From Deltaproteobacteria bacterium GWC2_55_46 (GTDB lineage: Bacteria; Desulfobacterota; GWC2-55-46), in the NCBI GenBank assembly GCA_001595385.3, contig LVEI03000002.1, positions 51,924 to 115,923 on the forward strand: a DNA stretch of 64,000 nucleotides, written 5' to 3'. The position numbers and the translations under genes are program-made. The notes under the pieces were generated by a model, which worked only from the letters and a program-made list of their open reading frames with translations, was not told the DNA's origin and searched no databases. Shown piece by piece: positions 5,648 to 45,231 of the stretch; position 1 is the stretch's first letter; each line of letters starts with the position of its first letter.

Positions 5648-5722
5648 AGGCGCGTAGCTCAGGGGTAGAGCGCTACCTTGACACGGTAGAGGTCGGCGGT
5701 TCGAAACCGCCCGTGCCTACCA
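5648..5722 (+). tRNA. tRNA-Val (anticodon GAC)
   Basis: Cloverleaf folded by hand: acceptor AGGCGCG/CGTGCCT, anticodon arm CTACC-TTGACAC-GGTAG, T-arm GGCGG-TTCGAAA-CCGCC, encoded CCA. Confidence 0.9.
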
Positions 5723-13333: not shown

Positions 13334-13410
<77 letters not shown>

Positions 13411-17520: not shown

Positions 17521-17570
17521 AAATCCCATATATGGGATTTCAGCGAAATAAAATCCCATATATGGGATTT
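17521..17570. promoter_or_regulatory. Two identical 20-bp perfect palindromes AAATCCCATATATGGGATTT, starts 30 bp apart
   Basis: Copies at 17521-17540 and 17551-17570, about 160 bp upstream of the alpA-like start. Candidate operator. Confidence 0.5.
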
Positions 17571-17807
17571 AGGAACAGTTGTGCGAGGAGAGCTTGAGTA
17601 CGCATTTGACGCATTATGCTCCGTAGCGTCCCGTACCTCGCCGGGGCCCGGGATCGGCAACTGGCCCGCGGTGGCACGCGATCCACCCCATTGTCTACTG
17701 CACTGGCTTTATATATAGGTATTTGCCCTATATTTTCCTTTTTTATATGTGTTTGAGCTGGAGAAACAATGACAGGGAACGCGTTCCATCGCGTTCCACC
17801 GCGTACC

Positions 17808-17960
17808 GGTCCTCGATGGTCCGCGGTCCGGCGTATTGTCCTCTCCATTGATTTTACATATAGACTCATCTTCCTTTTTAGTAATTTCACCTACACGTAC
17901 AATGGCAGGGACCGCGGACCACTGCGGACCACCTAAGCCAATGCCTGAATAAAAGCGGGT
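17808..17960. repeat. 153-bp direct repeat, copy B (orphan primase 3'-end remnant or cis site)
   Basis: Offset of exactly 2843 bp from copy A. The minus-strand translation keeps ...YSGIGLGGPQWSAVPAIVRVGEITKKEDESICK.NGEDNTPDRGPSRT with no gene body upstream. Confidence 0.9.
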
Positions 17961-18260
17961 ACGGCCCCTACCACACCTTCCTGCCCCAAAACGCTCCAAA
18001 ACTCCCCAACGCTCCACAATCGCCTACAAGCCACAGAACCCTGAACCCTTATGAAGGGCATGGGCCAGTCTTCTCCCGCGCTCCAGCGCCCCTCCTGTGA
18101 AGCCACACCGCCAAATAACTGGTAAGTTTCTTACCACCAATTGCAGGAAGGGAGCCTCATGGTACCCGACTTCCTGACTACGTTGTGTCGAATCGGATAC
18201 CGTTTTGCGTAAATCACCTTGTCAAAGATCCACAGGAATACCCCTCCAATACCCTACTCG

Positions 18261-18504
18261 ATACCCCCGTGATCCACCCAAATCACCGTCCCTAAAGCAC
18301 CAGGCTCCACCCTCTCCAAGTCAGGCTCGGCTCTCTCTCCAAGACTCCCCAAGAGGCTTGCCGTGAACCAGTTTCGACAAGGGGTGCCGGGGAGGGAAAA
18401 GTCCAGCAGAATCAAAATGTTAGGGATGGGGAGAAATAAATTGTGGGGGGTACTTTAACGACAGATACCCCCGCCCATAACAACATGAAACCCATAGGGG
18501 GTAC
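18261..18504. repeat. Iteron-like GGGGGTAC / ATACCCCC 8-mers (4 copies, both orientations)
   Basis: ATACCCCC at 18261 and 18465. GGGGGTAC at 18446 and 18497. All lie in an ORF-free stretch between the two island modules. Confidence 0.4.
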
Positions 18505-18604
18505 GGCATAGATTAGTAGTAATAATCCACCTATACAGGAGCGCAACGCCAGTTGACAGGGTCTTGGCAGCCGGTGATTGAACGCATAACCAGTAACAAT
18601 ATCA

Positions 18605-18730
18605 GTAACAATTGTTACCGATTATGATGCGTGCCACGAACGGCATAATCGCTTGAAAATTGAATACTTAAGCGACAACCTTCAGCCCGTATCCCTTGCC
18701 TATTCGATAACCGGTAACGATTGTTACCGG
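18605..18730. promoter_or_regulatory. Paired GTAAC-N-GTTAC palindromes (candidate operators)
   Basis: GTAACAATTGTTAC (18605-18618) and CCGGTAACGATTGTTACCGG (18711-18730), plus a half-site CAGTAACAAT at 18591. They sit 30-160 bp upstream of the first plus-strand gene. Confidence 0.4.
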
Positions 18731-18763
18731 TTAGGCAAGCCGGACGCATGAAAGGAAAACACC

Positions 18764-19342
18764 ATGTTAGAGATTAAAACCTTGCAGGACGTTGAAAAGC
18801 TGATGAAGGACGTAAACAAAGCCTTATCGCTTATTGAAAGCACGTACGGCAAGCAAGGACCAGTTTGCTATGCCATATCGCAATTCCTCAAGAGTGACAA
18901 CGGCAAGGCAGAGTTAGGGGAAACGTCTGCTAAGGCATGGTTAACAGAGCGTCTCAAGGGTGTTAGCGTGAACGCCTTTTACAATGCTGTTAGACGGTAT
19001 GAAGAATCCTTACTAACACCGGAGGAAAAGGAAACGAAAAAGGCAACGGCACAAGCGGAACGTGCCAAGAAAAAGGCAGAGCAAAAGGCTAAAGAGGATA
19101 GCATACCCGCCGATTTTTCGGCAATAGAGTTAGGGCTAAGGTCTGCTGTTAAAGGTTGGTCTATAGACCAGTTACAGACGGTTCAAGCTATTGTTGCGGC
19201 GGAATTAACCCGCAAGGAAAAAGCCATGACCGCCGAAGCGGCAAAACAGGCAAGTAAGGCTAAAGCCGTTCCTACAGGCAAAACACGGGTAACTGCGGCA
19301 AACGGTTCCGCATCGCCGATAGCACAAGCGGCAAACCAGTAA
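18764..19342 (+). CDS. Hypothetical protein, Lys/Ala/Glu-rich coiled-coil C-half (possibly KfrA-like DNA-binding)
   Basis: 192-aa ORF with an SD (GAAAGGAAAA). First gene of the plus-strand array. Function not established. Confidence 0.6.
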   Translation: MLEIKTLQDVEKLMKDVNKALSLIESTYGKQGPVCYAISQFLKSDNGKAELGETSAKAWLTERLKGVSVNAFYNAVRRYEESLLTPEEKETKKATAQAERAKKKAEQKAKEDSIPADFSAIELGLRSAVKGWSIDQLQTVQAIVAAELTRKEKAMTAEAAKQASKAKAVPTGKTRVTAANGSASPIAQAANQ

Positions 19343-19411: not shown

Positions 19412-19495
19412 ATGCGAAAAAGCATAATCTATTTTCTCGCCGGAGTACATGGAGCTATGGCCGTTGTAGTCGTGTACATAATGGCTACAATCTAA
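19412..19495 (+). CDS. 27-aa hydrophobic peptide (MRKSIIYFLAGVHGAMAVVVVYIMATI)
   Basis: AGGAG sits 8 nt upstream of the ATG. One predicted TM helix. Followed by a strong terminator. Confidence 0.4.
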   Translation: MRKSIIYFLAGVHGAMAVVVVYIMATI

Positions 19496-19522
19496 GCCGT
19501 ATCCCGATAAGACACGTTCAAG

Positions 19523-19558
19523 GCCGGAGAAGTTTGTCCATATTCTCCGGCTTTTTTT
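19523..19558 (+). terminator. Rho-independent terminator
   Basis: GCCGGAGAA/TTCTCCGGC stem followed by T7. Confidence 0.75.
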
Positions 19559-19559
19559 G

Positions 19560-20579
19560 CAGACTTCTCCATGCGCTCGCGCTCATGACGCATACCTGTA
19601 CCTGGGCAGTTGCACCCGTCTATCCGTCTAATAATCCCGCAAATTCAAAGCCCTGGAAGTCCGGTTAATCCGGGATTCCGAAAAACCTGGGATTGGTTTG
19701 CCCGAATCCGGCGAGTCCCTGTTTTAAAAGTTAAACCGTTTAACTTTTAGTTCTGAAAGTCCCTGAAAACGAAACTTCCCGAATCCCGAAAAGCCCTGGA
19801 AGTCCCCTGACTATTCTGAAACTGCGTTTTAAGCCTTGAAGATTATTAAGCAAAACGCCTGTTGAGAAACACGCGATAGCCCTTTAAACGGAGTCCTGGC
19901 CGTTTGGAGGATGCCCAGATAAGGAAGGTCTGCATAGCCCTGCCCAGGCGCCTGTCGGGAGACACGCGGAAGGAAGCGGACCCCTTGTCAATGAATGAGC
20001 AATCCTGGAATCTGAAAGCCGGTTAAATCCGGCTTGAAGGAGTCTTGGAAAGCTCCCCTGGTCTATCGGGGATGAGGATAGAGGAACCACGTATAGGCTC
20101 TGCTCGGAGTAACGTCCGAAGGCAACCAGTGGTCACGGCATGGAGGATGTCGCGAGAGTCGCGCTCCCAAGCTGCTCCCTGGAAGTAAGGGAAAGCGGTC
20201 CGGTGTAATTCCCGGTCCCGTTGAGTACCTGAGGTAAAGGATAGCGGTCTGTTCCCTGTAAAGGGATTCGGTGAAGAACCGAGGGCGCGGGTGGGTGAAT
20301 CGACGGCACGCCTTGCTGAACCTTGACTGATGTTTCGACGGGCCAAAAGCGAGAAGGTCCGCCTGGTCTTGGGGAAGCGTAGGACTGAAAATCCTGGGTT
20401 GAAGTCTGATTCAGGTCGATTCGTAAAGGACGAAAGTATACCCCTCATTCCTCCGGTCAGGTCTTACCTTAAAGGGCCAGGCAAGCACGCGCCTACACTA
20501 AAAGAGCTGAGCGAAAGCTCAGAAGCGTGCATACAACTGAATAGGAGTCCATGTGAGGGGTCATAACTGGCCCCTCTTT
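19560..20579 (+). ncRNA. Candidate large structured non-coding RNA (unclassified)
   Basis: 1.0 kb without a credible ORF in an otherwise gene-dense array. Plus-strand GNRA-capped hairpins (GAAA at 20513, GTAA at 20258) and nested helices. 3' terminator at 20555-20579. Boundaries are approximate. Confidence 0.35.
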
Positions 20580-20598
20580 ACTTCCCGAAGGAAGGTCG

Positions 20599-20823
20599 AT
20601 GGGAAAGAAGGCAGTAGAGAAAGCGATAGGCGAGCTGCTCGCGGAGATTTACCACAGGCTCAACGGCAAAGACCGGACAAAGGAGTTTGTGGGCGATCCC
20701 GCGATTAGGGCGCGACTGAATGGACAGTGGAGCATTTTGCATACGCTCTGCACGGTCCTGAAGCTGGACATGGTAAGTGTCCGAGCCAGCATGAGCGAGA
20801 AGCTTAAAGAGCTGGCGGCGTAA
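20599..20823 (+). CDS. Hypothetical protein
   Basis: 74 aa with SD GAAGGAAGG upstream. Confidence 0.6.
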   Translation: MGKKAVEKAIGELLAEIYHRLNGKDRTKEFVGDPAIRARLNGQWSILHTLCTVLKLDMVSVRASMSEKLKELAA

Positions 20824-21465: not shown

Positions 21466-21529
21466 CTTTGTGAAAGGCTCGATGGTCGAGCATTTCGTCA
21501 GAACGGGCTATGTGGTGGCCCTGGCCTAA
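21431..21529 (+). CDS. 32-aa hypothetical peptide
   Basis: GTG start with SD GAAAGGAGGTGA upstream. Its stop lies inside the repeated hairpin element. Confidence 0.35.
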   Translation: MVKVITNRGTFDFVKGSMVEHFVRTGYVVALA

Positions 21530-21625
21530 AAGTTAAACCGCTTAACTTTTAGTTCTGGAACCTTGAGTACCTAACCCGCAGGTATTCGGGGTTTTTTATT
21601 GTCTGCGGGGCGAAAGGGAGAAGTT

Positions 21626-32608: not shown

Positions 32609-33004
32609 ATGTCTACACCGTTTATAGTCATCACGGAAAGAATGCTGGAGGCCGGCAAGTTCAAAAATATGTCAGCCCTGGCAAGGGCGCTTGAAATAAC
32701 GCCACAGGCGCTCTCGAATTACAAGAAGCGCGAGGAGATGCCAACCAGCCTGGTGGTCAGGTTCGCCCAGATATACGGACTATCCATCGACTACCTGATA
32801 ACCGGGGAGGGCCCGGTCTTAAGGGCCGACTCAGCAACCGACCCCATGAAGAGCATCGGTATAACACCCGATGAAGGGGTCGCGGTGTTCCAGACGCTCA
32901 AGGTACTCAGACGGGAAGGCCCGACCGCCCTCGCCCTAAAGAGCGTGCTCGACGCCTTCTATAGCCATCGGCTGAAGGAGGACGTATGTCAAAGGCAATC
33001 ATAG
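32609..33004 (+). CDS. CI-repressor-like HTH (XRE superfamily) regulator
   Basis: MSALARALEITPQALSNYKKREEMPTSLVVRFAQIYGLSIDYLITGEG is the Phage_CI_repr-type N-domain. Confidence 0.7.
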   Translation: MSTPFIVITERMLEAGKFKNMSALARALEITPQALSNYKKREEMPTSLVVRFAQIYGLSIDYLITGEGPVLRADSATDPMKSIGITPDEGVAVFQTLKVLRREGPTALALKSVLDAFYSHRLKEDVCQRQS

Positions 33005-33437: not shown

Positions 33438-33629
33438 ATGTCTGAAAAACAGCAATTCACCAAGTTCGATTACTACGTCTTCGGCTGGACCATATTCCTG
33501 TTCTTCGCCGTCTTCTGGTTCTTCAACGCGGAGTCCTGGGACCAGTACCTTGAAGGTATGACCGGGTTTGCCATGATAGGCGGGGCGCTGACGTTATGGG
33601 ATCACATATCTGAACGGAGGACAAAATGA
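33438..33629 (+). CDS. Two-TM membrane protein
   Basis: 63 aa with SD AAAGGAG. Hydrophobic segments WTIFLFFAVFWFF and FAMIGGALTLW. Confidence 0.55.
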   Translation: MSEKQQFTKFDYYVFGWTIFLFFAVFWFFNAESWDQYLEGMTGFAMIGGALTLWDHISERRTK

Positions 33630-34621
33630 GCAGCCAGCCTCAAGAGCAGGCCATGCTCCTTATGGCCCTTGCTTCGCTCGGCAAAAGGCTTGAAGGCATT
33701 GAGAAGCGGCTGGACGGGAAAACCCCCGTCCTTCTCGTCGAGGAGGCCGCGGAGGGGTTCAAGGCGTACCTCAAAGAGAACGCCAGGCCGAATACCCGAA
33801 GGTCCTTCGACTACCTGCTTGCCGAGTTCGAGAAGGAGTTCGCCGGCCAGAACGTACCGGAGATCCCCCCGTACAGGCTACAGGAGTTCCTCGGGGCGAC
33901 GTGGGGCAAGGGGAAGAAGAGCGTGGTCAAACAGTCCCTCTCCAAGCTCAAGTGGTTTTATTCCTGGTGCATCAAGGCCGTCATGGTCAAGGGCATGCCG
34001 CTGTTCTACAACCCCTGTGACCTTATCGAGGTCAAGGACGACGGTCCTCCTGATAGACCGGAGTTCGTGCCGGTCGAGAAGATGAAAGCGTTTCTGGACA
34101 CGATGGTTGACCCCAAGCACTGGCTTATGACAGCCATCCTTATGACCTCAGGGATGAGGGTTTCCGAGTTGCTTGGAGACAAACGGGCAGAAAAACCTGG
34201 ACTCTGCAAGAAGGACGTAAGTGGGAGGATCCTTGCACTCCACAACACCAAGTCGGGGAGAAGGGGAGAGGTCGCCGTGATCCCCGTCTGGGTAGCCGAG
34301 CGTCTCAGCCAGTTCTTGCAAAACCTCGGGCCGGAGGATAGAATCTTCACCACGGGCTACACCTCGTATCACGGTGTCGTGAAGTCCCACGGGAAGAGGG
34401 TCGGATTGGATATGAAGCCGCATTACATGAGAAAGTGGATAGCGAGCTTATGGAACAGGATGGGGGAATACGGGATGACCTCGTTCGTGCTCAGACACGC
34501 TACAACGAAGGCGAACGAAGCAACCCTCGTAACCGCGCTTGGAGCAAGGTACGTGGCACCACTCAGTCCGAAAGAGGCGATGGAGAAACAAGATGAAATG
34601 CTAAACTTTCCCAGGAGGTAA
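33626..34621 (+). CDS. Tyrosine recombinase/integrase
   Basis: SAM-like N-domain. Catalytic-domain motifs SGMRVSELLG (Arg), HYMRKW (HxxR) and LRHAT...GARY. Confidence 0.75.
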   Translation: MSSQPQEQAMLLMALASLGKRLEGIEKRLDGKTPVLLVEEAAEGFKAYLKENARPNTRRSFDYLLAEFEKEFAGQNVPEIPPYRLQEFLGATWGKGKKSVVKQSLSKLKWFYSWCIKAVMVKGMPLFYNPCDLIEVKDDGPPDRPEFVPVEKMKAFLDTMVDPKHWLMTAILMTSGMRVSELLGDKRAEKPGLCKKDVSGRILALHNTKSGRRGEVAVIPVWVAERLSQFLQNLGPEDRIFTTGYTSYHGVVKSHGKRVGLDMKPHYMRKWIASLWNRMGEYGMTSFVLRHATTKANEATLVTALGARYVAPLSPKEAMEKQDEMLNFPRR

Positions 34622-36177: not shown

Positions 36178-38025
36178 TCAAACACCAGCACTCCTTATTT
36201 TCCCGGTCGAGTCCACGGTGAACTCAATGATTTTCTGAGTCTCGGCGTTATCCTCAAAATACTCATACTTCTTTGAGCCGTCCGGGTTGTCTGTCTGTTT
36301 CAGCCTGCCGCGCTCCATTTTGTAGAGGAGTTCCGACATTACCTTTGTGGCTGCAATGGACGCTTCATTTGTGGCCTCGTTCAAATATTGATAGCAGTTT
36401 ATCGTCTCTGAGTTTGCGCCCGTCAGATTGATGTCCCCGGAGGTATTCCCCTCGACGATAAGCCCCGGCCCGATTATATGGTTATTGTCTGCCCCGTTCA
36501 ATTCGTTTATTCCGTAGCCTGTGTTCTGTGTTATGGCCGTGCCCTTCTCCCCGGCGAACACATAGTTATTTTGCGTATTGGCCCCGTCGAATCTAATGCC
36601 ATCTCCATCGTTGGAAAGTATCCTGGTGTTCCTGATTACGTTCCGAACAGCATTGCCGGAGGTGGATTTGATGGATATAGCATGGCCGCTGCCGCCCTGC
36701 GCGGCGTCCTGAATCACCACATCGTCAATTAGGGCGTGGCTTCCGTTGAGCGAGGCTATCCCATGCCCGCGGCTGTAATCCACCCACACCTTTCTTACCA
36801 GAGCGAAGTCCGCCTGTATGGAGATGGCATCTTTCGACCCGCTGTTTGCTGTTTCTATGATGAAGCCAGAAATCTCACAACCCGGAGCAGATATGGTGAC
36901 AGTGTTGTTTGCCGTCGAAGTGGTCTTGATTTTCAAATCTCTCCCCGGCCCACGGAGGAGGGTAAAGGCTTTATTCATGTCAAAAAATGTATCAACCTGA
37001 GTAGTCGCGCCGATATCCCCCGGCATGCCAATGACTATATCATGCCGATATGCCACAACGAGGGCATTGACCCCTGCCCATGTAAGCTTCGCGGTTGAAG
37101 GAGTAAGCCCATCATTGCTGTCGTTGCCTCCAATAGGATTCCAGTAGAAGATCCGCCCCCTGCCCGTATGCGTTCCCCTCTGATATTCGATGAGGTTGAA
37201 AAGGTTATCAGTATTATTATTAACAGTCGCTTCCTTCGCCAGCACTATCCTGTGTGTATCCACTCCGCTATCGTCTATCTCACCGAGCCCGTTCCCTAAG
37301 AAGACTGTTCCCGCCGCGATATAGGTGTCTTCCGCCCCTCCTCCGACTTTCAAGCCATATTCTCCGTTGCCATGCAATGTCATCCCATCCTTCAGCCGGA
37401 CGTCATGGTTGTCAGTCCCCGTAATATTCACACCGTTATCGCCGCAATTATCTACATATCCGTCAAGGAGGTCGATTCCGTTGTTATTGTTGCCGAAATC
37501 AATGCCATCGGTCCCGCAATTTTTAATAGAAAACTTTTCATAAATATCCCCGTGTCCATTAACCGAATATATGCCGCGACGGGAAGCCCCTTTCACTATA
37601 ACTCCGCTAAAGTGAAAGTATTTGCCGTCCTTCCTGATACCATCTACATTCGCCCCCGCGAGAGAAACGTCGAGGTGAAGTCCGGTCATCTGGACGCCTT
37701 CCGCAAGGACCTCAACGGCTGCGCCGGACGGTAGGGCGGTCGTCGGACGTATTCTGGCGTCAAACCCAGGGCCTCTTAGGGACAGCCAGTTTTTCGTTAT
37801 GCTGATGTTCTCATCTATATAAAATACCCCCCCACTATTCGTGCTGCTGAGGTAGATGGCATCATGACCCCAATCCGCGCAAAGACTGTGAGCCTGCGCG
37901 AATGTCTTGACCGCAGATTTTTCCGAGATACCATCGTTAGCGTCATTTCCATTGACAGGGTCCCAATAGTAACTATCCCCTTTGTTGGTATGATGCCCTC
38001 TCAACGATTCCACCATGAACTGCAT
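36178..38025 (-). CDS. Right-handed parallel beta-helix protein with an internal two-domain duplication (tailspike/depolymerase-like)
   Basis: Two copies of the H-T-x-(K/R)-G-x-x-(Y/F)-YW-(D/N)-P-x-x-GND-x-NDG leader, each followed by NxxGxxI-type beta-helix coils. Start at M85 (38025) is chosen because the upstream 84 aa look like antisense translation. Confidence 0.6.
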   Translation of the reverse strand: MQFMVESLRGHHTNKGDSYYWDPVNGNDANDGISEKSAVKTFAQAHSLCADWGHDAIYLSSTNSGGVFYIDENISITKNWLSLRGPGFDARIRPTTALPSGAAVEVLAEGVQMTGLHLDVSLAGANVDGIRKDGKYFHFSGVIVKGASRRGIYSVNGHGDIYEKFSIKNCGTDGIDFGNNNNGIDLLDGYVDNCGDNGVNITGTDNHDVRLKDGMTLHGNGEYGLKVGGGAEDTYIAAGTVFLGNGLGEIDDSGVDTHRIVLAKEATVNNNTDNLFNLIEYQRGTHTGRGRIFYWNPIGGNDSNDGLTPSTAKLTWAGVNALVVAYRHDIVIGMPGDIGATTQVDTFFDMNKAFTLLRGPGRDLKIKTTSTANNTVTISAPGCEISGFIIETANSGSKDAISIQADFALVRKVWVDYSRGHGIASLNGSHALIDDVVIQDAAQGGSGHAISIKSTSGNAVRNVIRNTRILSNDGDGIRFDGANTQNNYVFAGEKGTAITQNTGYGINELNGADNNHIIGPGLIVEGNTSGDINLTGANSETINCYQYLNEATNEASIAATKVMSELLYKMERGRLKQTDNPDGSKKYEYFEDNAETQKIIEFTVDSTGKIRSAGV

Positions 38026-38062
38026 GTATTCACGGTTGTTCAAGGGACTATTGAGCAGGTGA

Positions 38063-38503
38063 CTTACCACTTGTGTCGAGCCCGTGGAGTTGTCCGAGCA
38101 ATTTTTCAAGGAACTCTTCTGGCTTAAGGGGGATAACCTCGACAAACACGGCATACTTAAAGACCTGGCCGCTGACAGCGGGTTCAGGTTCAGTTTCCGC
38201 GCGGCGGCCTCCAAATTCAAGATCATAGATGAGTCATTACAAGCGTCCGTACTTGTCAGATACGGCGGGGGAGACAAGTTGATCGAACAATTAATAAAGA
38301 ATGGTCCCGAGCGGTGGCTAATGAGAAAGCTTCAGAGATATGCGGTCAACGTGCCAAGGTATCTGTTAGAAAAACTAATCAAATCGGGCGAAATCGAAGT
38401 GCTGTTTGAGGGCATATTCGCTCAATCTACCATCAGTCGCTATGACCAAACCCTCGGTCTTTGTTACGGAACCGCAATAGAGCCCGATGACTTGATAGTA
38501 TGA
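38063..38503 (+). pseudogene. Putative 3' remnant of cas3 (type I-C helicase-nuclease C-terminus)
   Basis: Protein-like open frame ending 32 nt before cas5c, the position cas3 occupies in canonical I-C operons. The frame opens only at 38063. Identity is not verified by search. Confidence 0.4.
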
Positions 38504-38534: not shown

Positions 38535-39215
38535 ATGGCTACTGTCTTAAAAAGCCGTCTTATGCATCTTAAGGTTTGGGGGCAGAACGCGTGTTTCACC
38601 AGGCCCGAGATGAAGGTTGAGAGGGTCTCGTATGATGTAATGACTCCATCCGCCGCAAGAGGGGTATTAGAAGCCATTCTTTGGAAGCCTGCCATAGTCT
38701 GGCGGATAGCGCAGATCGATGTGCTTCGGCCCATCAAGTGGGCGTCGGTCAGGAGGAACGAGGTGGGTGCCGTGATGTCGGCTCGCTCCGCTGGGATTTT
38801 TGTTGAAGATGAGAGGCAACAGAGGGCGGGACTAATCCTCCGGGATGTCGAATACACCATACACGCTTTTTTTGAAATGACGGAGAGAGCAGGTCCGGCG
38901 GATAATGTTGTCAAGTTTGAGGAGATGTTCCAACGGCGCGCGGAAAACGGCCAATGCTTTCACAGACCGTACTTGGGGTGCAGGGAGTTCGTGGCGCACT
39001 TCAATCCTGTTCTTAAAGACGAGCTCTTGCCAGAGCCGATAGATAAAAACATGGATCTGGGCTGGATGCTCTATGACATTAAACATGATAATAGCGCTGA
39101 TGTAAACTACATACACCTTTGCGGTGCCGGATGCCGACCATACTTCTTCCGAGCTTCGTTGGATAAAGGCATTGTGCTGGTGCCCCCAGCGGCAAGCAAG
39201 GAGGTGAGGGGATGA
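38535..39215 (+). CDS. cas5: Cas5c/Cas5d (type I-C pre-crRNA endoribonuclease)
   Basis: LKVWGQNACFTRPEMKVERVSYDVMTPSAARGVLEAILWKP is the canonical Cas5d N-terminus. Confidence 0.9.
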   Translation: MATVLKSRLMHLKVWGQNACFTRPEMKVERVSYDVMTPSAARGVLEAILWKPAIVWRIAQIDVLRPIKWASVRRNEVGAVMSARSAGIFVEDERQQRAGLILRDVEYTIHAFFEMTERAGPADNVVKFEEMFQRRAENGQCFHRPYLGCREFVAHFNPVLKDELLPEPIDKNMDLGWMLYDIKHDNSADVNYIHLCGAGCRPYFFRASLDKGIVLVPPAASKEVRG

Positions 39216-40945
39216 TACTTCAGGCATTAAATGCTTATTATAGGCGGATGGCGACGGATAAGGACTCTGATATCGCACCCGAGGGATTTCAAAGGCAAGC
39301 AATCCCGTTTGTCGTCATGCTTGACGGTAAAGGCCGATTCAGAGGCATTCAAGATACAAGGCAAACAGATGGGAAAAAGAAGATTGCGCGTACTTTTATC
39401 GTTCCGAAAGCCGTCAAAAGGTCAGTCGGTATTGAGGCCAATCTTCTATGGGACAACCCCGCTTATGTCTTTGGGTGTTCGAAACCTGATAAAAAGAAGG
39501 ATGGCGTAAAAGCCGCCGAACGCGCCAAGGAACAGCAGGAGAGTTTCATTGCTAAAGTCAAAAAAAATTTACCCGATTCATCAGATATCGGAGTGAATGC
39601 GGTTCTTCAATTCCTCGCTACTCGCGATTTCATCGGCGTATTTTCGCATACTTTGTGGCCTGAAATTGAGGAGGGCGGGGCAAATATAGCCTTTCAGCTT
39701 GAAGGTGACACGGAACTCGTATGCCAGCGCGATGCAGTAGTGAATACCATTATGAAAGGAAAGGAAGATGAAAACGAAACAGCATCGCCTTGCCTTGTAA
39801 CAGGAGAAATGACCGTCCCTGCTCGCCTACATACCGCCATTAAAGGCGTATGGGGGGCACAGTCCGCAGGTGCGAACATCGTCTCATTTAATCTCGATGC
39901 CTTTACTTCGTTTGGAAAAACGCAGGGCTTCAATGCGCCAATTGGGGAAAAAGCCGAGCACGCATATACGACTGCAATAAACACCTTGCTTGCAAAAGGC
40001 TCAAGGCAACGCATACAGGTAGGAGACGCAAGCACGGTCTTCTGGGCAGAAAGACAGAATGTCATGGAGGAATTGTTTAAAGATTTTTTTGGAGAACCCC
40101 CTAAAGGACAATCGGCGCAGGACAATGAGGCGATAAAAGCGCTCTTTAAAGCGCCTGAAACAGGAGCGCCTCCTCTCGATAGCGACTTGACGAAGTTCTA
40201 TGTCCTTGGCCTTTCACCAAACGCATCCCGTATTGCGGTGCGCTTCTGGTATGCAGGGACCGTTGGATGTGTCGCCCAGAATATCAGGCAACATTTTTGC
40301 GATTGCAGTATCGTCCACAGTCCAAGGGAACCCGAACATCTCTCGTTATTCCGGCTCCTCGTTTCAACCGCAATGGAGGGAAAGGCGGACAATATTCAAC
40401 CGAACCTTTCAGGAGAGGTGATGAAGGCGATACTTTCAGGAAATCCATATCCTAAAACGCTGCTTTCATCAGCTATAAGGAGGATCAAGGCCGAGAGGGA
40501 AATAACCTATCCAAGGGCATCCCTCATTAAGGCAATTCTCGTGAGGGAATCAAGATTTTATAACAGAAAAGAAAAGGAGGTAAGTATGTCACTTGACCCC
40601 GAAAACAAAAACACAGGGTATCTCTTGGGGCGCTTATTTGCGGTTCTGGAGCGGGCGCAGGAGTTCGCAAGTCCGGGCATTAACGCAACTATCAGAGACC
40701 GCTTCTATGGCTCGGCATCGAGCACTCCGGTTGCCGCCTTCCCCCACTTGATGAAGCTCAAGAACCACCATATCGCAAAACTCGAAAACAGGGGCGCGGC
40801 GGTAAATCTCGAAAAACAGATAGGCGGGATAATGGAGGGAGTAAGCGATTTTCCCGCGTATCTGAGTCTCCAAGACCAGGGGCGCTTTGCCATTGGCTAC
40901 TACCACCAGAGACAGAGTTTTTTCGTAAAGAAAGACAGTGAATAA
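39212..40945 (+). CDS. cas8c: Cas8c/Csd1 (type I-C large subunit)
   Basis: [13 protein letters not shown]... N-terminus, 577 aa, position between cas5c and cas7c. ATGA overlap. Confidence 0.85.
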
Positions 40946-40964
40946 ACTTCAAAGGAGGGATCCA

Positions 40965-42053
40965 ATGAGCAAAGCAGTAAACAACCGTTATGATTTTGTA
41001 TTGTTATTCGATGTTAAGGACGGGAATCCAAATGGAGACCCCGATGCAGGAAACCTCCCTCGCTTAGACCCGGAAACCGGGCATGGTCTGGTTACGGATG
41101 TGTGCCTGAAAAGGAAGGTAAGGAACTATGTGCAGATGGCCGGACGAGAACAGGGGTTTGATATCTATGTCAAAGAAAAAGCTGTCCTCGGGAGAGCACA
41201 TGTCGATGCATTTAAACGACTCGGAATCCAATTAGGAGAAGAATCCAAAGTACAAATACCATCTGGCCTGGTCGACAAATTTTCTGAATTGAGCTTGCCT
41301 GATGGTTTGAGGGTTGAAGAGGACGATAATACTGATTTTCTTCTCATTGAATCCGATGTTGATAAAAAAGCAGTTAAAGAATGGATAAAAGAGATAAAGC
41401 CCGACAAGGATATAAAGAAGTTTATTGATGATACAATGAAAGGGGCAAAATCTCGAAAGCCATCTGGAGACGAGGTGCAAAAAGGAAGAGATGAGATGTG
41501 TAAAACATTCTATGACATACGCACTTTTGGTGCTGTGTTGTCACTAAAGTCAGCCCCGAACTGCGGACAGGTGCGCGGCCCTGTCCAATTAACCTTCGCC
41601 CGCAGCATAGACCAGATAGCGCCTCTTGAGCACAGCATCACCCGCATGGCCGTGGCGACCGAGGCAGAGGCCGAGAAACAGCAGGGCGATAACCGCACGA
41701 TGGGAAGGAAGTTTACGGTCCCCTACGGCCTTTACAGGTGCCACGGGTTCGTCTCCGCTCCGCTTGCCTCACAGACCGGTTTTACGGACGATGACCTGGA
41801 GCTTCTGTGGAAGTCTCTTACTGAAATGTTCGAGCACGACCGCTCTGCCGCGCGTGGAGAGATGTCTACACGGAAGCTCGTGGTCTTCAAGCACGATAGC
41901 GCCCTCGGCAGCGCCCCGGCTCATGCACTGTTCGAGCGCGTCACGGTCTCGCGCAAAAGCGTTGCGGCTCCACCACGCGGTTTTGCTGATTACGAGATCA
42001 ATATTAGTAAAGTAGGCCTCCCGAATGGGGTCAGCATAATCGAGAAACCGTAG
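40965..42053 (+). CDS. cas7: Cas7c/Csd2
   Basis: [27 protein letters not shown] is the canonical Csd2 sequence. ATG 40965 after AAAGGAGGG. Confidence 0.9.
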
Positions 42054-42060
42054 GCGACTC

Positions 42061-42753
42061 ATGTTCTCCGAAGACGACCTCCTCCCCATCTCCGCGCTCC
42101 AGCACCTCTCGTTCTGCGAGCGGCAGTGGGGGCTTATACACCTTGAGGGCATCTGGGGGGAAAACCGCCTGACCGTGGAAGGCCGCCATCTCCATGACAG
42201 GGCGCATGAGGATGAAACCGAGGTCCGGCGCGATCTACGCATAGCCCGGGGGCTTCGCCTTCGCTCTTTAAGGCTCGGGCTTTCCGGGAAGGCGGACGTC
42301 GTTGAGTTCCATCTCGTAAAGGAGGCGGACAAAACAGGCGGCATGCGCCTTGAGGGTGTCGCGGGTCTCTGGCGGCCCGTTCCCGTTGAGTATAAACGTG
42401 GCAAGCCAAAATTGGACGCGTGCGACGAGGTCCAGATTTGCGCTCAGGCGCTCTGTATCGAGGAGATGACCGGCGCGCAGGTGCAGAACGGGATGCTCTT
42501 TTACGGTACTCCGAGAAGAAGATATGATGTACTCTTTGACACCGGGTTAAAGGGGAAAACGGAAGCGCTCTGTGTGCGCCTCCATGAGCTTACAAAGGCG
42601 CGCAAAACACCGGCGGCAAAATACGAGAAGAAATGCGAGAGCTGTTCCCTTATCGACTTTTGCATGCCCAAAACCGTCGGCAAGCGGACGAAAGTGGAAA
42701 GATACATCATGGCGGCCATCTCTGATACTGCCGATACAAAAGGAACGGAATGA
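42061..42753 (+). CDS. cas4: Cas4 (RecB-like nuclease with 4-Cys cluster)
   Basis: ISALQHLSFCERQWGL... and C-terminal CESCSLIDFC. Confidence 0.9.
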   Translation: MFSEDDLLPISALQHLSFCERQWGLIHLEGIWGENRLTVEGRHLHDRAHEDETEVRRDLRIARGLRLRSLRLGLSGKADVVEFHLVKEADKTGGMRLEGVAGLWRPVPVEYKRGKPKLDACDEVQICAQALCIEEMTGAQVQNGMLFYGTPRRRYDVLFDTGLKGKTEALCVRLHELTKARKTPAAKYEKKCESCSLIDFCMPKTVGKRTKVERYIMAAISDTADTKGTE

Positions 42754-43781
42754 AGCGGCTGCTCAATACGCTTTTTGTCACCACTCAAGGCGCATACCTT
42801 TCCCGCGAAGGAGAGACCGTGCTCGTCCGGGTGGAATACGAAACAAAGCTTCGGGTGCCGATCCACACCCTCGGAGGGATAGTTTGTTTCGGACAGGTCT
42901 CGGCGAGCCCTCCGCTTATGGAACTGTGTGGAGAGGCGGGCGTTACGCTCTCTTTTTTGAGCGAGCATGGTCATTTCATTGCACGGGTGCACGGCCCCGT
43001 TTCGGGGAATGTGCTTTTAAGGCGCGAACAATATCGTCGTGCGGATGACGAGACGTCCTCCTCCGTGGTTGCGCGCGCAGTTCTTGTCGCAAAGGTCGCC
43101 AATTGCCGTACGGTTCTACTGCGCTCCGCGCGGGAGAAGCCGGATGCTGATAGCGCGGAGGCCCTTCTTTCCGCCTCCGGGCGCCTGTCGCGAATACTCA
43201 AAAGTCTTGAGAATGAAGCCTCTCTCGATGCCCTCCGGGGCATGGAAGGGGAGGCGGCGCGTACATACTTCAGCGTATTCGATCACCTCGTGCTGTCTCA
43301 GAAGGAAGACTTTTATTTTACGGAGAGGAGCCGAAGGCCTCCGCTTGACAACCTCAACGCGCTGCTCTCATTCATCTACACCTTGCTTGCCCACGATGTC
43401 GCATCGGCGCTTGAGGGTGTGGGGCTTGACCCGGCTGTGGGCTTTTTGCACCGGGACAGACCCGGAAGGCCGGGGCTTGCGCTCGATCTCATGGAGGAGT
43501 TAAGGCCTTTCCTTGCCGACCGGCTGGCGCTTTCTCTTGTGAACCGGCAGCAGGTGAAGGGCAAGGGGTTCAACGCAACCGAGACCAGGGCGGTTATGAT
43601 GGACGACAAAACGCGGAAGGAGGTGCTTGTATCTTATCAAAAACGCAAGCAGGAGGAGATTCAGCATCCTTTCCTGGGCGAAAAGGTGGCAATCGGGCTT
43701 CTCCCTCATTGTCAGGCGATGCTCCTTGCGCGTTATCTGCGTGGCGACATGGATGGATATCCACCGTTCATTTATAAATGA
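42750..43781 (+). CDS. cas1: Cas1 integrase
   Basis: 343 aa. NTLFVTTQGAYL..EGE..., EG.AAR.YF, LN.LLSF.YTLL motifs. ATGA overlap. Confidence 0.9.
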   Translation: MKRLLNTLFVTTQGAYLSREGETVLVRVEYETKLRVPIHTLGGIVCFGQVSASPPLMELCGEAGVTLSFLSEHGHFIARVHGPVSGNVLLRREQYRRADDETSSSVVARAVLVAKVANCRTVLLRSAREKPDADSAEALLSASGRLSRILKSLENEASLDALRGMEGEAARTYFSVFDHLVLSQKEDFYFTERSRRPPLDNLNALLSFIYTLLAHDVASALEGVGLDPAVGFLHRDRPGRPGLALDLMEELRPFLADRLALSLVNRQQVKGKGFNATETRAVMMDDKTRKEVLVSYQKRKQEEIQHPFLGEKVAIGLLPHCQAMLLARYLRGDMDGYPPFIYK

Positions 43782-43790
43782 GGTCAGGTC

Positions 43791-44081
43791 ATGATGGTAT
43801 TGGTGACTTATGATGTGAATACTGAGACCGAGGCAGGCAAAAAAAGGCTCAGGCGCGTTGCCAAAGTATGTGAGAACACCGGCCAGCGGGTGCAGAACTC
43901 GGTTTTTGAATGCCTGGTGGACCCAGCCCGATGGGTCGATATGCGCCAAAAGCTGATTAAGGAGATCGACCCTGCCGTTGATAGTCTGCGGTTCTATTTT
44001 TTGGGGAGCAACTGGAAACGGCGGATTGAGCACGCCGGAGCAAAACCCGCGTATGACCCCGAAGGGCCTCTCATCGTCTAA
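43791..44081 (+). CDS. cas2: Cas2
   Basis: MMVLVTYDV.....GKKRLRRVAK.C...GQRVQNSVFEC is the canonical Cas2 sequence. Confidence 0.9.
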   Translation: MMVLVTYDVNTETEAGKKRLRRVAKVCENTGQRVQNSVFECLVDPARWVDMRQKLIKEIDPAVDSLRFYFLGSNWKRRIEHAGAKPAYDPEGPLIV

Positions 44082-44265
44082 GAGTTCCGCGTACCATAAG
44101 CGGACACGAAAAGACCTGCAGATTCGCGACGTATGTATCTTATTGAAATAAAAACAAAAATTCGGTGTTAAGGAGGAATGTGAACAAAGAGAGGGCTAAG
44201 GAAAAGGATGGTTCGCGAAAACACGTGTGCAAGTTCCTGGTTTTTGAATAGTATTTGGTGTTGCC
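44082..44265 (+). promoter_or_regulatory. CRISPR leader (AT-rich)
   Basis: Lies between cas2 and repeat 1 and contains TTATTGAAATAAAAACAAAAATT. The degenerate repeat is at the far end of the array. Confidence 0.6.
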
Positions 44266-45231
44266 GTCGCTCCCCGCGCGGGAGCGTGGATTGAAACCGG
44301 TATGGTCAAGATCCAGTGTGACTATCGGCAGGGTCGCTCCCCGCGCGGGAGCGTGGATTGAAACTTCGTTCCGGAATCGAGCGCGACCTCTAGCACCGTC
44401 GCTCCCCGCGCGGGAGCGTGGATTGAAACATGGTCTTCATCTCAATAAAGAGGCCGTGCTTCCCGGTCGCTCCCCGCGCGGGAGCGTGGATTGAAACTGT
44501 TTCTCTTTAAGGCTCTCTCTGGGACTGATTTTGTCGCTCCCCGCGCGGGAGCGTGGATTGAAACGCGGGACTGGGAGCATAGGATTTCCCGGTCTGTAAG
44601 TCGCTCCCCGCGCGGGAGCGTGGATTGAAACCTTTCAGATCTCTTCGGCATCCTCGCGAAACACGGTCGCTCCCCGCGCGGGAGCGTGGATTGAAACAGG
44701 ATTAGCGGGTGCGCATTTGGCTATAAATTCAGTCGCTCCCCGCGCGGGAGCGTGGATTGAAACGCGTAATGTCATACACCTACCAAATACCTCTTGCAGT
44801 CGCTCCCCGCGCGGGAGCGTGGATTGAAACTGTTAAAAGTAGTTGCGGTGCCTAAATCAACGCAAGTCGCTCCCCGCGCGGGAGCGTGGATTGAAACGAT
44901 GTTGTACCCGTTGACCGGGTGCTTGATCTCCGTCGCTCCCCGCGCGGGAGCGTGGATTGAAACGACGGCATAACCTTCCGCGTAATCTGCCGTATAACGT
45001 CGCTCCCCGCGCGGGAGCGTGGATTGAAACGCTATAGTTACGAGTCTGTCAGCCATCAGAATACGTCGCTCCCCGCGCGGGAGCGTGGATTGAAACTAAA
45101 CACAAGCGGAAACCCCGTCTCAATGACTTCATGTCGCTCCCCGCGCGGGAGCGTGGATTGAAACAGGGAAGGGAAGAAGGAAGAGGCGGCGAAGTGGAAG
45201 TCGCTCCCCGCGCGGGAGCGTGGATTGAGTT
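44266..45231 (+). CRISPR. Type I-C CRISPR array, 15 repeats and 14 spacers
   Basis: 32-nt repeat GTCGCTCCCCGCGCGGGAGCGTGGATTGAAAC. Spacers are 33-36 nt. The last repeat (45200-45231) ends ...GATTGAGTT (degenerate). Confidence 0.97.

Follow-up and report, generated by a model that had tools for sequence, protein, structure and literature searches.

Does the gene-free segment at positions 19560-20579 of the window, the whole 64,000-nucleotide (nt) stretch of Deltaproteobacteria bacterium GWC2_55_46 DNA analyzed here, encode a large structured RNA, and does any such RNA belong to a known class? Both questions were raised by an earlier note made from the window's letters alone. The observation itself is real, and the interpretation of a large structured RNA on the plus strand is supported by our open reading frame (ORF), covariation, and fold-stability checks. 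Judged by comparison with related loci, positions ~19855-20579 appear to encode a member of an uncatalogued family of large structured non-coding RNAs, ~0.5-0.7 kb in length, in which a variable 5' domain precedes a conserved multi-helix 3' core (20084-20531). The RNA family is carried by temperate phage-like elements. The earlier note had extended the structure across the whole segment; this stood for the 3' part and failed for the first ~300 nt, a control spacer with a fold-stability z-score of -0.38 (19560-19880). The positions concerned are:

19560-20579: ORF-free segment in two parts, an unstructured control spacer (~19560-19854) and the plus-strand structured RNA (~19855-20579)
~19855-20579, plus strand: structured RNA; conserved core, 20084-20531; terminator, 20555-20579
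20599-20823, plus strand: gene for a 74-amino-acid (74-aa) protein, directly downstream of the RNA in all seven lineages

Relatives were found via the 74-aa protein, by word-indexed searches and one exhaustive HMMER search, after which their contigs were fetched. These gave seven lineages in all, namely the window (W) and six further ones from metagenome assemblies: A (L018/L021), C (L014), D (L017), E (L077/L079), F (L082), and G (L084). Upstream of the 74-aa gene, gene callers left a gap of 880-1256 nt empty in each of the seven, and nhmmer showed this gap to be homologous in all of them. The seven lineages, which retain the gap within a conserved order of ~200-aa gene, gap, and 74-aa gene, are so divergent that BLAST can only just detect their similarity. 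The left arms differ wholly, encoding (i) primase and AlpA, (ii) an AAA_25 helicase and MT-A70, (iii) a sigma-70 family factor and a methylase, (iv) an integrase, single-stranded DNA-binding protein, and HNH protein, or (v) helix-turn-helix proteins.

Searches beyond these loci yielded little. For the window, identical copies turned up in aquifer metagenomes and in GCA_003499885.1. Neither BLAST with the segment in phage and plasmid collections nor a search of IMG/VR with both flanking proteins gave any match, and DNA-pattern scans of IMG/VR, GTDB genomes, and Joint Genome Institute metagenomes returned only chance matches in coding genes and the known A-type contigs. The first DNA pattern was too strict, as lineage F carries CCGACAUU instead of CCUACACU. 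By these sequence searches the family appears to be rare, being found only in a few metagenome assemblies.

The absence of any credible ORF from 19560-20579 was borne out, since neither the window nor the homologous intervals hold a conserved one. None of the six other lineages has an intact or conserved ORF there, stops occur in all six frames in all lineages, and substitutions show no codon periodicity (chi-square p = 0.18-1.0). Two minus-strand ORFs that had been pointed out (19884-20090 and 20023-20448) do exist, yet they are broken or not conserved in the relatives.

Fold stability and covariation both indicated a structure on the plus strand. Positions 19870-20585 were more stable than shuffled sequences on the plus strand only (z = -4.15, versus -1.73 on the minus strand), with plus-strand values of -2.42 in lineage C and -7.95 in lineage D. 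From an alignment of W, A, and C, RNAalifold predicted 100 pairs over 20137-20482, 15 of them with double compensatory changes; adding E raised this to 115 pairs, of which 25 had double changes, and 94.8% of cells were paired. Our six-lineage alignment retained 92 pairs in 18 helices, with 93.9% of cells paired. Double changes affected 31 of these 92 pairs, as opposed to 13.9±2.5 in shuffles (none of 500 reached 31), and a control in which partners were slid by 1-3 columns gave 3-9 double-change pairs and 35-43% of cells paired. The four- and six-lineage alignments thus provide strong covariation support. Between W and A, which are 87-90% identical, differences fall at 14 paired and only 3 unpaired columns. 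Further, the model contains 37 G·U cells versus 6 A·C cells, and this excess indicates that the folded strand is the plus strand.

The proposed RNA is built as follows, from 5' to 3':

~19855-20083, plus strand: variable 5' domain, with hairpins AGCCGG-UUAAAU-CCGGCU (20017-34) and CCCC/GGGG (20055-71)
20084-20134, plus strand: core domain Pa-Pb-Pc, with helices 20086-90/20129-33, 20101-04/20121-24, and 20105-08/20115-18
20137-49/20446-58, plus strand: long-range helix enclosing subdomains S1 and S2
20160-20289, plus strand: S1, of large size in W, A, and C; only two or three hairpins remain in E, F, and G
20290-20445, plus strand: S2, with the purine-rich conserved loop AAAAGCGAGAA (20345-55) and the junction GUAAAGG (20423-29)
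20460-20478, plus strand: hairpin HL, with the conserved loop UUACCUUAAAG
20485-20530, plus strand: terminal hairpin HT, with an outer stem (20485-90/20525-30) and an inner stem-loop (20507-22)
20531-20579, plus strand: 3' tail and intrinsic terminator, comprising the conserved AACUGAAUA (20535-43), then GAGGGG...CCCCTC TTT (20555-79)

We place the 5' boundary of the RNA at ~19855 because identity to lineage A jumps at ~19857, from 76-88% in the spacer to 95-100% from there onward. The 5' domain occurs in two partly related types, with E, G, and D carrying a different type from the window, and is absent in C. Its 20017-34 stem is shortened in lineage A by a matched deletion, and its CCCC/GGGG stem reads UCCC/GGGA in lineage C.

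Within the core, the Pa-Pb-Pc domain holds the conserved unpaired GGCUCUG (20096-102) and shows compensatory forms of both Pa (ACCAC/GUGGU, ACCGC/GCGGU, and AUCAC/GUGAU) and Pc (CGGA/UCCG, CGAG/CUCG, CCGCA/UGCGG, and CAUAC/GUAUG). The long-range helix reads GGAGGA/UCCUCC in W, A, and C, GGAGAA/UUCUCC in E, GGAGAG/CUCUCC in F and G, and, by hand alignment, GGAGUG/UACUCC in D. Helices 5-15 of the six-lineage model are 89-100% paired and carry many double changes. Downstream, the HL stem (helix 16) takes the forms GGUC/GGCC, GGUC/GACC, GAGCC/GGCUC, UAAUC/GAUUA, and AGUC/GACU. The HT outer stem (helix 17) occurs as GCACGC/GCGUGC, GCGCAC/GUGCGC, GCGUGU/ACACGC, and GCAUAC/GUAUGC; it is always paired (100%), with 3 double-change pairs, and HT also contains a conserved asymmetric internal loop of 14 nt, CCUACACUAAAAGA (20492-505). 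The tail is common to W, A, D, and E and is present in F as AACUAAAUA. A hairpin with a U-run follows the RNA in W, A, D, E, and F (five of the seven lineages), whereas C has a palindrome there and G has none.

Within S2, the S2b helix shows three double changes between W and C/E, and the window has a unique 28-nt insertion (20387-20414). We also observed that S2b of lineage A combines a 5' strand of the window type (GAAUCGAC) with a 3' strand of the C/E type (GUUAAUCC), and that the window's insertion sits between both S2b strands; this mosaic has the appearance of a recombination junction within the RNA gene.

The earlier note had named several hairpins, and all of them lie where it put them. 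CTGAGC-GAAA-GCTCAG (20507-20522) is nested in GCACGC/GCGTGC (20485-90/20525-30), TCCCT-GTAA-AGGGA (20253-66) stands beside TCGGT-GAAGA-ACCGA (20268-82), both CCGG-TTAA(A)T-CCGG hairpins are present, and a terminator scan confirmed GAGGGG/CCCCTC plus TTT at 20555-79 as the 3' terminator. The emphasis on GNRA loops fared less well: the hairpins are conserved, but the GNRA loops as such are not, with GAAA being replaced in relatives by UGAAAG, CGAGAG, UUCG, or CUUACG, and GUAA by UCAA.

Three further pairings were rejected. A 24-nt long-range complementarity (19879-902/20454-77), seen in the window alone, is broken in the closest relative, lineage A, and is probably not real; a helix closing the 5' flank onto the 3' tail lacks conservation, with one register in W/A, another in D, and no counterpart in E; and for a pseudoknot pairing the S2 loop with the tail, cross-lineage duplexes had energies as good as the cognate ones. 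Possible kissing contacts, AAGUA/CUUAC and AGGC/GCCU, were noted by eye only.

The 74-aa protein is by far the most constrained gene product of the region, with 63-99% identity across lineages versus 21-66% for neighboring proteins. The RNA ends 20 nt before its gene in the window and 10 nt before it in lineage G, and the distance from HT to the start codon is 10-106 nt across lineages. An exhaustive HMMER search with the protein returned one 50%-identity cluster and no wider family, and it matched no Pfam or PADLOC family. Its AlphaFold model, with a mean predicted local distance difference test (pLDDT) score of 69.6, comprises three long helices and a short low-confidence turn, from which the protein is predicted to be soluble and helical; a structure search with this model gave no significant fold match. 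Two sequence likenesses were set aside. Residues 29-52 (EFVGDPAIRARLNGQWSILHTLCT) resemble the repeat unit of eukaryote-type Sushi/CCP proteins (GDPFIRCQSNGQWS), with E = 5e-54 through 19 repeats, which we took as chance or compositional, and the likeness of the N-terminus to the GCN4 zipper was taken as chance or coiled-coil composition. The 94-aa protein encoded downstream of the 74-aa gene was likewise rejected as an RNA-linked product, having 183 homologs, with three fetched loci that are tightly packed and contain neither the RNA nor a gap.

On the other side of the RNA lie the following features:

18764-19342, plus strand: upstream syntenic gene, encoding a 192-aa K/A/E-rich protein
19520-19556, plus strand: intrinsic terminator, an inverted repeat AAGGCCGGAGAA/TTCTCCGGCTTT followed by T7, closing the upstream unit (192-aa gene and ORF 19413-19496)
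19560-19854, plus strand: control spacer, with the repeat AAAGCCCTGGAAGTCC, CCTGGR motifs, CCTGACTATTCTGAAAC (19806-22), and CTTGAAGATTATTAAGC (19835-51)
19726-19748: 23-nt palindrome AAAAGTTAAAC-C-GTTTAACTTTT, then AGTTCTG; second copy at 21528-21550

A gene for a K/A/E-rich protein of 192-278 aa precedes the gap in six of the seven lineages, the contigs of E ending too early. The upstream proteins of A, C, F, and G (200-217 aa) are clearly homologous, with 33-54% mutual identity, and the window's 192-aa protein aligns with them only via its C-terminal 45 aa; it belongs to no Pfam, PHROG, or PADLOC family. The 19520-56 terminator is kept in A and C. Directly before this terminator we noted a tiny hydrophobic ORF (19413-19496; 27 aa, MRKSIIYFLAGVHGAMAVVVVYIMATI) with a good ribosome-binding site, and L018 and L021 have a 23-aa hydrophobic ORF in the same place; the window ORF may be a real small membrane peptide.

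The spacer itself is rich in short repeated elements. AAAGCCCTGGAAGTCC, listed twice in the earlier note, is an exact 16-nt repeat (19647-62 and 19790-805), and GAATCCCG, put there at 19772, lies at 19781-88. CCTGGR occurs seven times on the plus strand of the segment, including two copies within the repeat, rather than eight times in addition to those two; the local enrichment holds, as the density is ~10 times that of the whole window (86 sites on both strands of the 64 kb). Upstream of the RNA, several lineages, including C, E, and G, carry short conserved elements (CCTGAYTATTY..AAAC and CTTGAAGATTATT) and iteron-like repeats. In lineage E, L079 1-130 holds three tandem iteron-like units of ~37 nt (TAATCTGGCTTTCCYGGRAGTTGGGRAGTCCCY), which resemble the CCTGGAAGTCC and TAATCCGG motifs at 19640-19700 of the window. 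Copies of the palindrome AAAAGTTAAAC-N-GTTTAACTTTT occur in L014 (6295, 7260, 7394, and 7962) and L018 (6045, 7152, 8654, and 8939); all are intergenic and head plus-strand units, usually with GTTCTG next. In lineage C this palindrome also takes the place of the terminator separating the RNA from the 74-aa gene. Variants occur in L082, and no copy was found in L017. The palindrome is probably an operator or promoter-associated site of some regulator, and we infer that the spacer serves as a regulated promoter region.

The RNA lies within a mobile island whose borders are:

13334-34621: island, ~21 kb, from tRNA-Pro on the left to a tyrosine integrase at the far end
13334-13410: tRNA-Pro, left island border
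32609-33004: helix-turn-helix regulator, right island end
33626-34621: tyrosine integrase, right island end

The minus strand of the island encodes a D5-type primase-helicase, a CHC2 zinc-finger protein, and AlpA, and the long plus-strand run of small genes matched no known families. We recognized no capsid, tail, or terminase genes in 13334-34621, and the island is possibly not a full prophage but a satellite-like or cryptic element. A search for an att repeat found no direct repeats of at least 12 nt shared by the tRNA-Pro end and the integrase end (33-38.6 kb). A second ORF-poor stretch of ~1.2 kb (17560-18760) separates the 192-aa gene from the divergent AlpA gene; it contains several short tandem duplications of 10 nt and the palindrome ATCGGTAACAATTGTTACTGAT (18601-22), and is likely a divergent promoter and regulatory region. 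Past the island, a type I-C CRISPR-Cas locus (38535-45228) encodes Cas5d, Csd1/Cas8c, Cas7, and Cas1 and has an array of 15 repeats of GTCGCTCCCCGCGCGGGAGCGTGGATTGAAAC (44266-45228); the 13 spacers extracted from it matched neither the island nor any related locus fetched. A 699-aa minus-strand ORF adjoining this locus (36178-38277) had no family match.

As to whether the RNA belongs to a known class, a cmscan of the whole window against Rfam 15 (4227 covariance models) at gathering thresholds found two tRNAs only, at 5648 and 13334, which are the sole tRNAs of the window. Even at E<=10, the region in the window and in two divergent relatives (L017 and L014) was assigned to no family, with chance-level matches only (PhotoRC-I, at 16.5 bits where 45 are needed, and microRNA models), and the GOLLD and ROOL models were unmatched in all three. 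On this basis we regard the family as new. OLE, HEARO, group I and II introns, RNase P RNA, and transfer-messenger RNA (tmRNA) likewise gave no covariance-model match, and ARAGORN called no tmRNA. The segment's flanks are complete separate genes and not an interrupted host gene, as an intron would have.

Comparisons with individual systems show both likenesses and differences. GOLLD and ROOL are encoded by phages and prophages, often beside tRNA islands (PMC12286853). The context here is phage-like, with integrase, AlpA, and D5 primase, and the nearest tRNA, tRNA-Pro, is 6.4 kb off at the island border. Like GOLLD, the RNA spans several hundred nucleotides, has many covariation-supported helices, is borne by phage-like elements, and is conserved toward its 3' end and less so toward its 5' end (PMC12286853). 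It differs from GOLLD in having no sequence or structure match to it, in not lying beside tRNA genes, and in being strictly linked to one small protein gene; it is also much rarer, with none in phage and plasmid collections or IMG/VR. ROOL too is a large complex RNA encoded in prophages and phages (PMC12286853), but it is often near tRNA islands and has no known protein partner, whereas the RNA described here has a fixed protein-gene neighbor, no tRNA neighbor, and no Rfam match. A homo-oligomeric nanocage is a further hallmark of the GOLLD and ROOL classes.

OLE invites a different comparison, that of gene arrangement. The gene for the OLE partner, a membrane protein, lies directly beside the OLE RNA gene inside a longer operon, and our idea of the 74-aa protein as a partner is modeled on this arrangement. 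OLE itself measures ~600 nt and functions together with a protein (PMC3413148). It is chromosomal in anaerobic extremophile Firmicutes, whereas our RNA is on a mobile element of a Deltaproteobacteria metagenome-assembled genome; RNA homology between the two was not found, and the 74-aa protein encoded next to our RNA falls in no Pfam family and has a predicted soluble, helical structure. Two other systems are likened to the locus by layout. The HK022 put RNAs, of ~70 nt with two stem-loops, mediate processive antitermination; as with put, a structured RNA heads an early phage operon and is followed by a terminator that needs read-through, but the window RNA exceeds put 7-10-fold in size, the terminator is missing from two lineages, and the likeness is one of layout only. 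In type III toxin-antitoxin systems (ToxIN), a tandem-repeat antitoxin RNA lies upstream of the toxin gene, and a terminator sets the RNA:protein ratio. The order of RNA gene, terminator, and small protein gene is shared with ToxIN, whereas 19560-20600 contains no tandem repeat, and the 74-aa protein has no PADLOC match and is half the size of ToxN.

The reading that we favor, and consider probable, is that of an uncatalogued phage-element RNA that is transcribed together with the 74-aa gene and acts as a folded RNA, likely with the 74-aa protein. Transcription would proceed rightward from a promoter in the spacer (19560-19854), where we place it because the spacer comes after the terminator of the upstream unit and because its palindrome marks the starts of other units. 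The RNA would be the first product of a unit that runs on into the 74-aa gene from one shared transcript start, as the 20 nt (window) or 10 nt (G) between them leave no room for a promoter. The hairpin and U-run at 20555-79 would halt most transcripts, yielding an abundant discrete RNA with a protected 3' end, while leaky read-through would give smaller amounts of mRNA for the 74-aa protein and for the small genes that follow. The RNA would then act as a free folded molecule, most likely as a ribonucleoprotein with the co-inherited, nearly invariant, helical 74-aa protein, in the early or lytic program of the element. We favor a free RNA working with this protein because the core is large and complex and because the 74-aa gene is the most constrained of the region. 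More tentatively, we suggest that the RNA and the protein could form a new phage ribonucleoprotein, or a self-assembling or catalytic RNA with a protein cofactor, acting early, for example against host defense or on host translation.

A number of points weigh against this account. A sigma-70 scan of the spacer found no promoter. The structure was predicted on the same alignments that were used for counting, although the margins are large; seven lineages are known, several of them close to one another; and the most divergent, D, could be aligned confidently only at the Pa loop, the long-range helix (by hand), HL, HT, and the tail. Lineage A has two mismatches in S2b (L018 7717-7727/7846-7856; window 20297-20304/20415-20422). 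As for an RNA-binding partner, the best fold match of the 74-aa model, the double-stranded RNA-binding domain of influenza NS1, was non-significant (E of about 2). Moreover, the tight linkage of RNA and gene and the terminator before the 74-aa gene fit a cis-acting leader equally well.

Such a leader is the main rival, and one that we hold to be somewhat unlikely. The RNA would then be a long 5' untranslated region of the 74-aa operon, without any role as a free RNA, that governs read-through at 20555-79, either through processive antitermination of the kind known from HK022 put or through sensing, which would determine whether the downstream early genes are expressed. It would explain why the RNA is invariably followed at once by the same gene, with HT 10-106 nt from the start codon and no room for a promoter, why a terminator stands exactly at the junction in five of the seven lineages, and why the RNA sequence is best conserved nearest the gene. 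In G, moreover, only 10 nt separate the end of the last helix, which lies just ahead of the ribosome-binding site, from the start codon, and RNA and mRNA must therefore be one transcript. A leader of 500-700 nt with ~20 helices and two nested subdomains would, however, far exceed the size of known antitermination RNAs and riboswitches. Many of the conserved unpaired core nucleotides are far from the junction, no alternative pairing between the core and the terminator stem was found, and the whole core is kept both in C, where a palindrome replaces the tail and terminator, and in G, which has no terminator.

Could the conserved fold instead be that of DNA? A single- or double-stranded element with a recognized folded strand, serving as a replication origin or as a packaging or recombination site, would accord with the iteron-like repeats and palindromes of the neighboring spacer and with the D5-type primase-helicase encoded nearby in the island, and folded single-stranded DNA would also tolerate G·T wobble. 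We nevertheless consider it very unlikely: the repeats fall outside the conserved core, the replication modules of the seven lineages are wholly different while the core is unchanged, the element has operon orientation and an RNA-type terminator at its end, and a ~450-nt conserved fold with ~90 pairs is unknown for origins. It is similarly improbable to a high degree that the RNA is a very divergent member of a catalogued class (GOLLD, ROOL, OLE, HEARO, group I/II intron, or RNase P RNA); its size, phage context, and conserved 3' and less conserved 5' parts do resemble GOLLD (PMC12286853), but no Rfam 15 model matched three divergent members at E<=10, and no tRNA island is adjacent. That the segment is a decayed gene, or a neutral spacer with chance hairpins, we find scarcely credible. 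Single-sequence folds of G+C-rich DNA always give hairpins, and the window has two long minus-strand ORFs, yet these are broken in relatives, codon periodicity is absent, compensatory changes are far above controls, and the gap is kept in seven lineages.

The locus illustrates that rare RNA families can escape both Rfam and scans of viral contig collections. To our knowledge, only a handful of elaborate conserved bacterial or phage RNA classes larger than 500 nt are known (GOLLD, ROOL, OLE, and a few others), and the family described here would add one more class to these few. For RNA biologists its interest, limited by the small number of members, lies in a built-in candidate protein partner: unlike in GOLLD and ROOL, one and the same small protein gene accompanies the RNA in every case, which offers a direct experimental handle. 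The RNA sits in the early region of poorly known temperate elements of groundwater Deltaproteobacteria, most of whose genes are unannotated. If the proposal of a ribonucleoprotein or protein-assisted RNA is true, these elements would carry a large RNA that represents a new functional class instead of a leader sequence.

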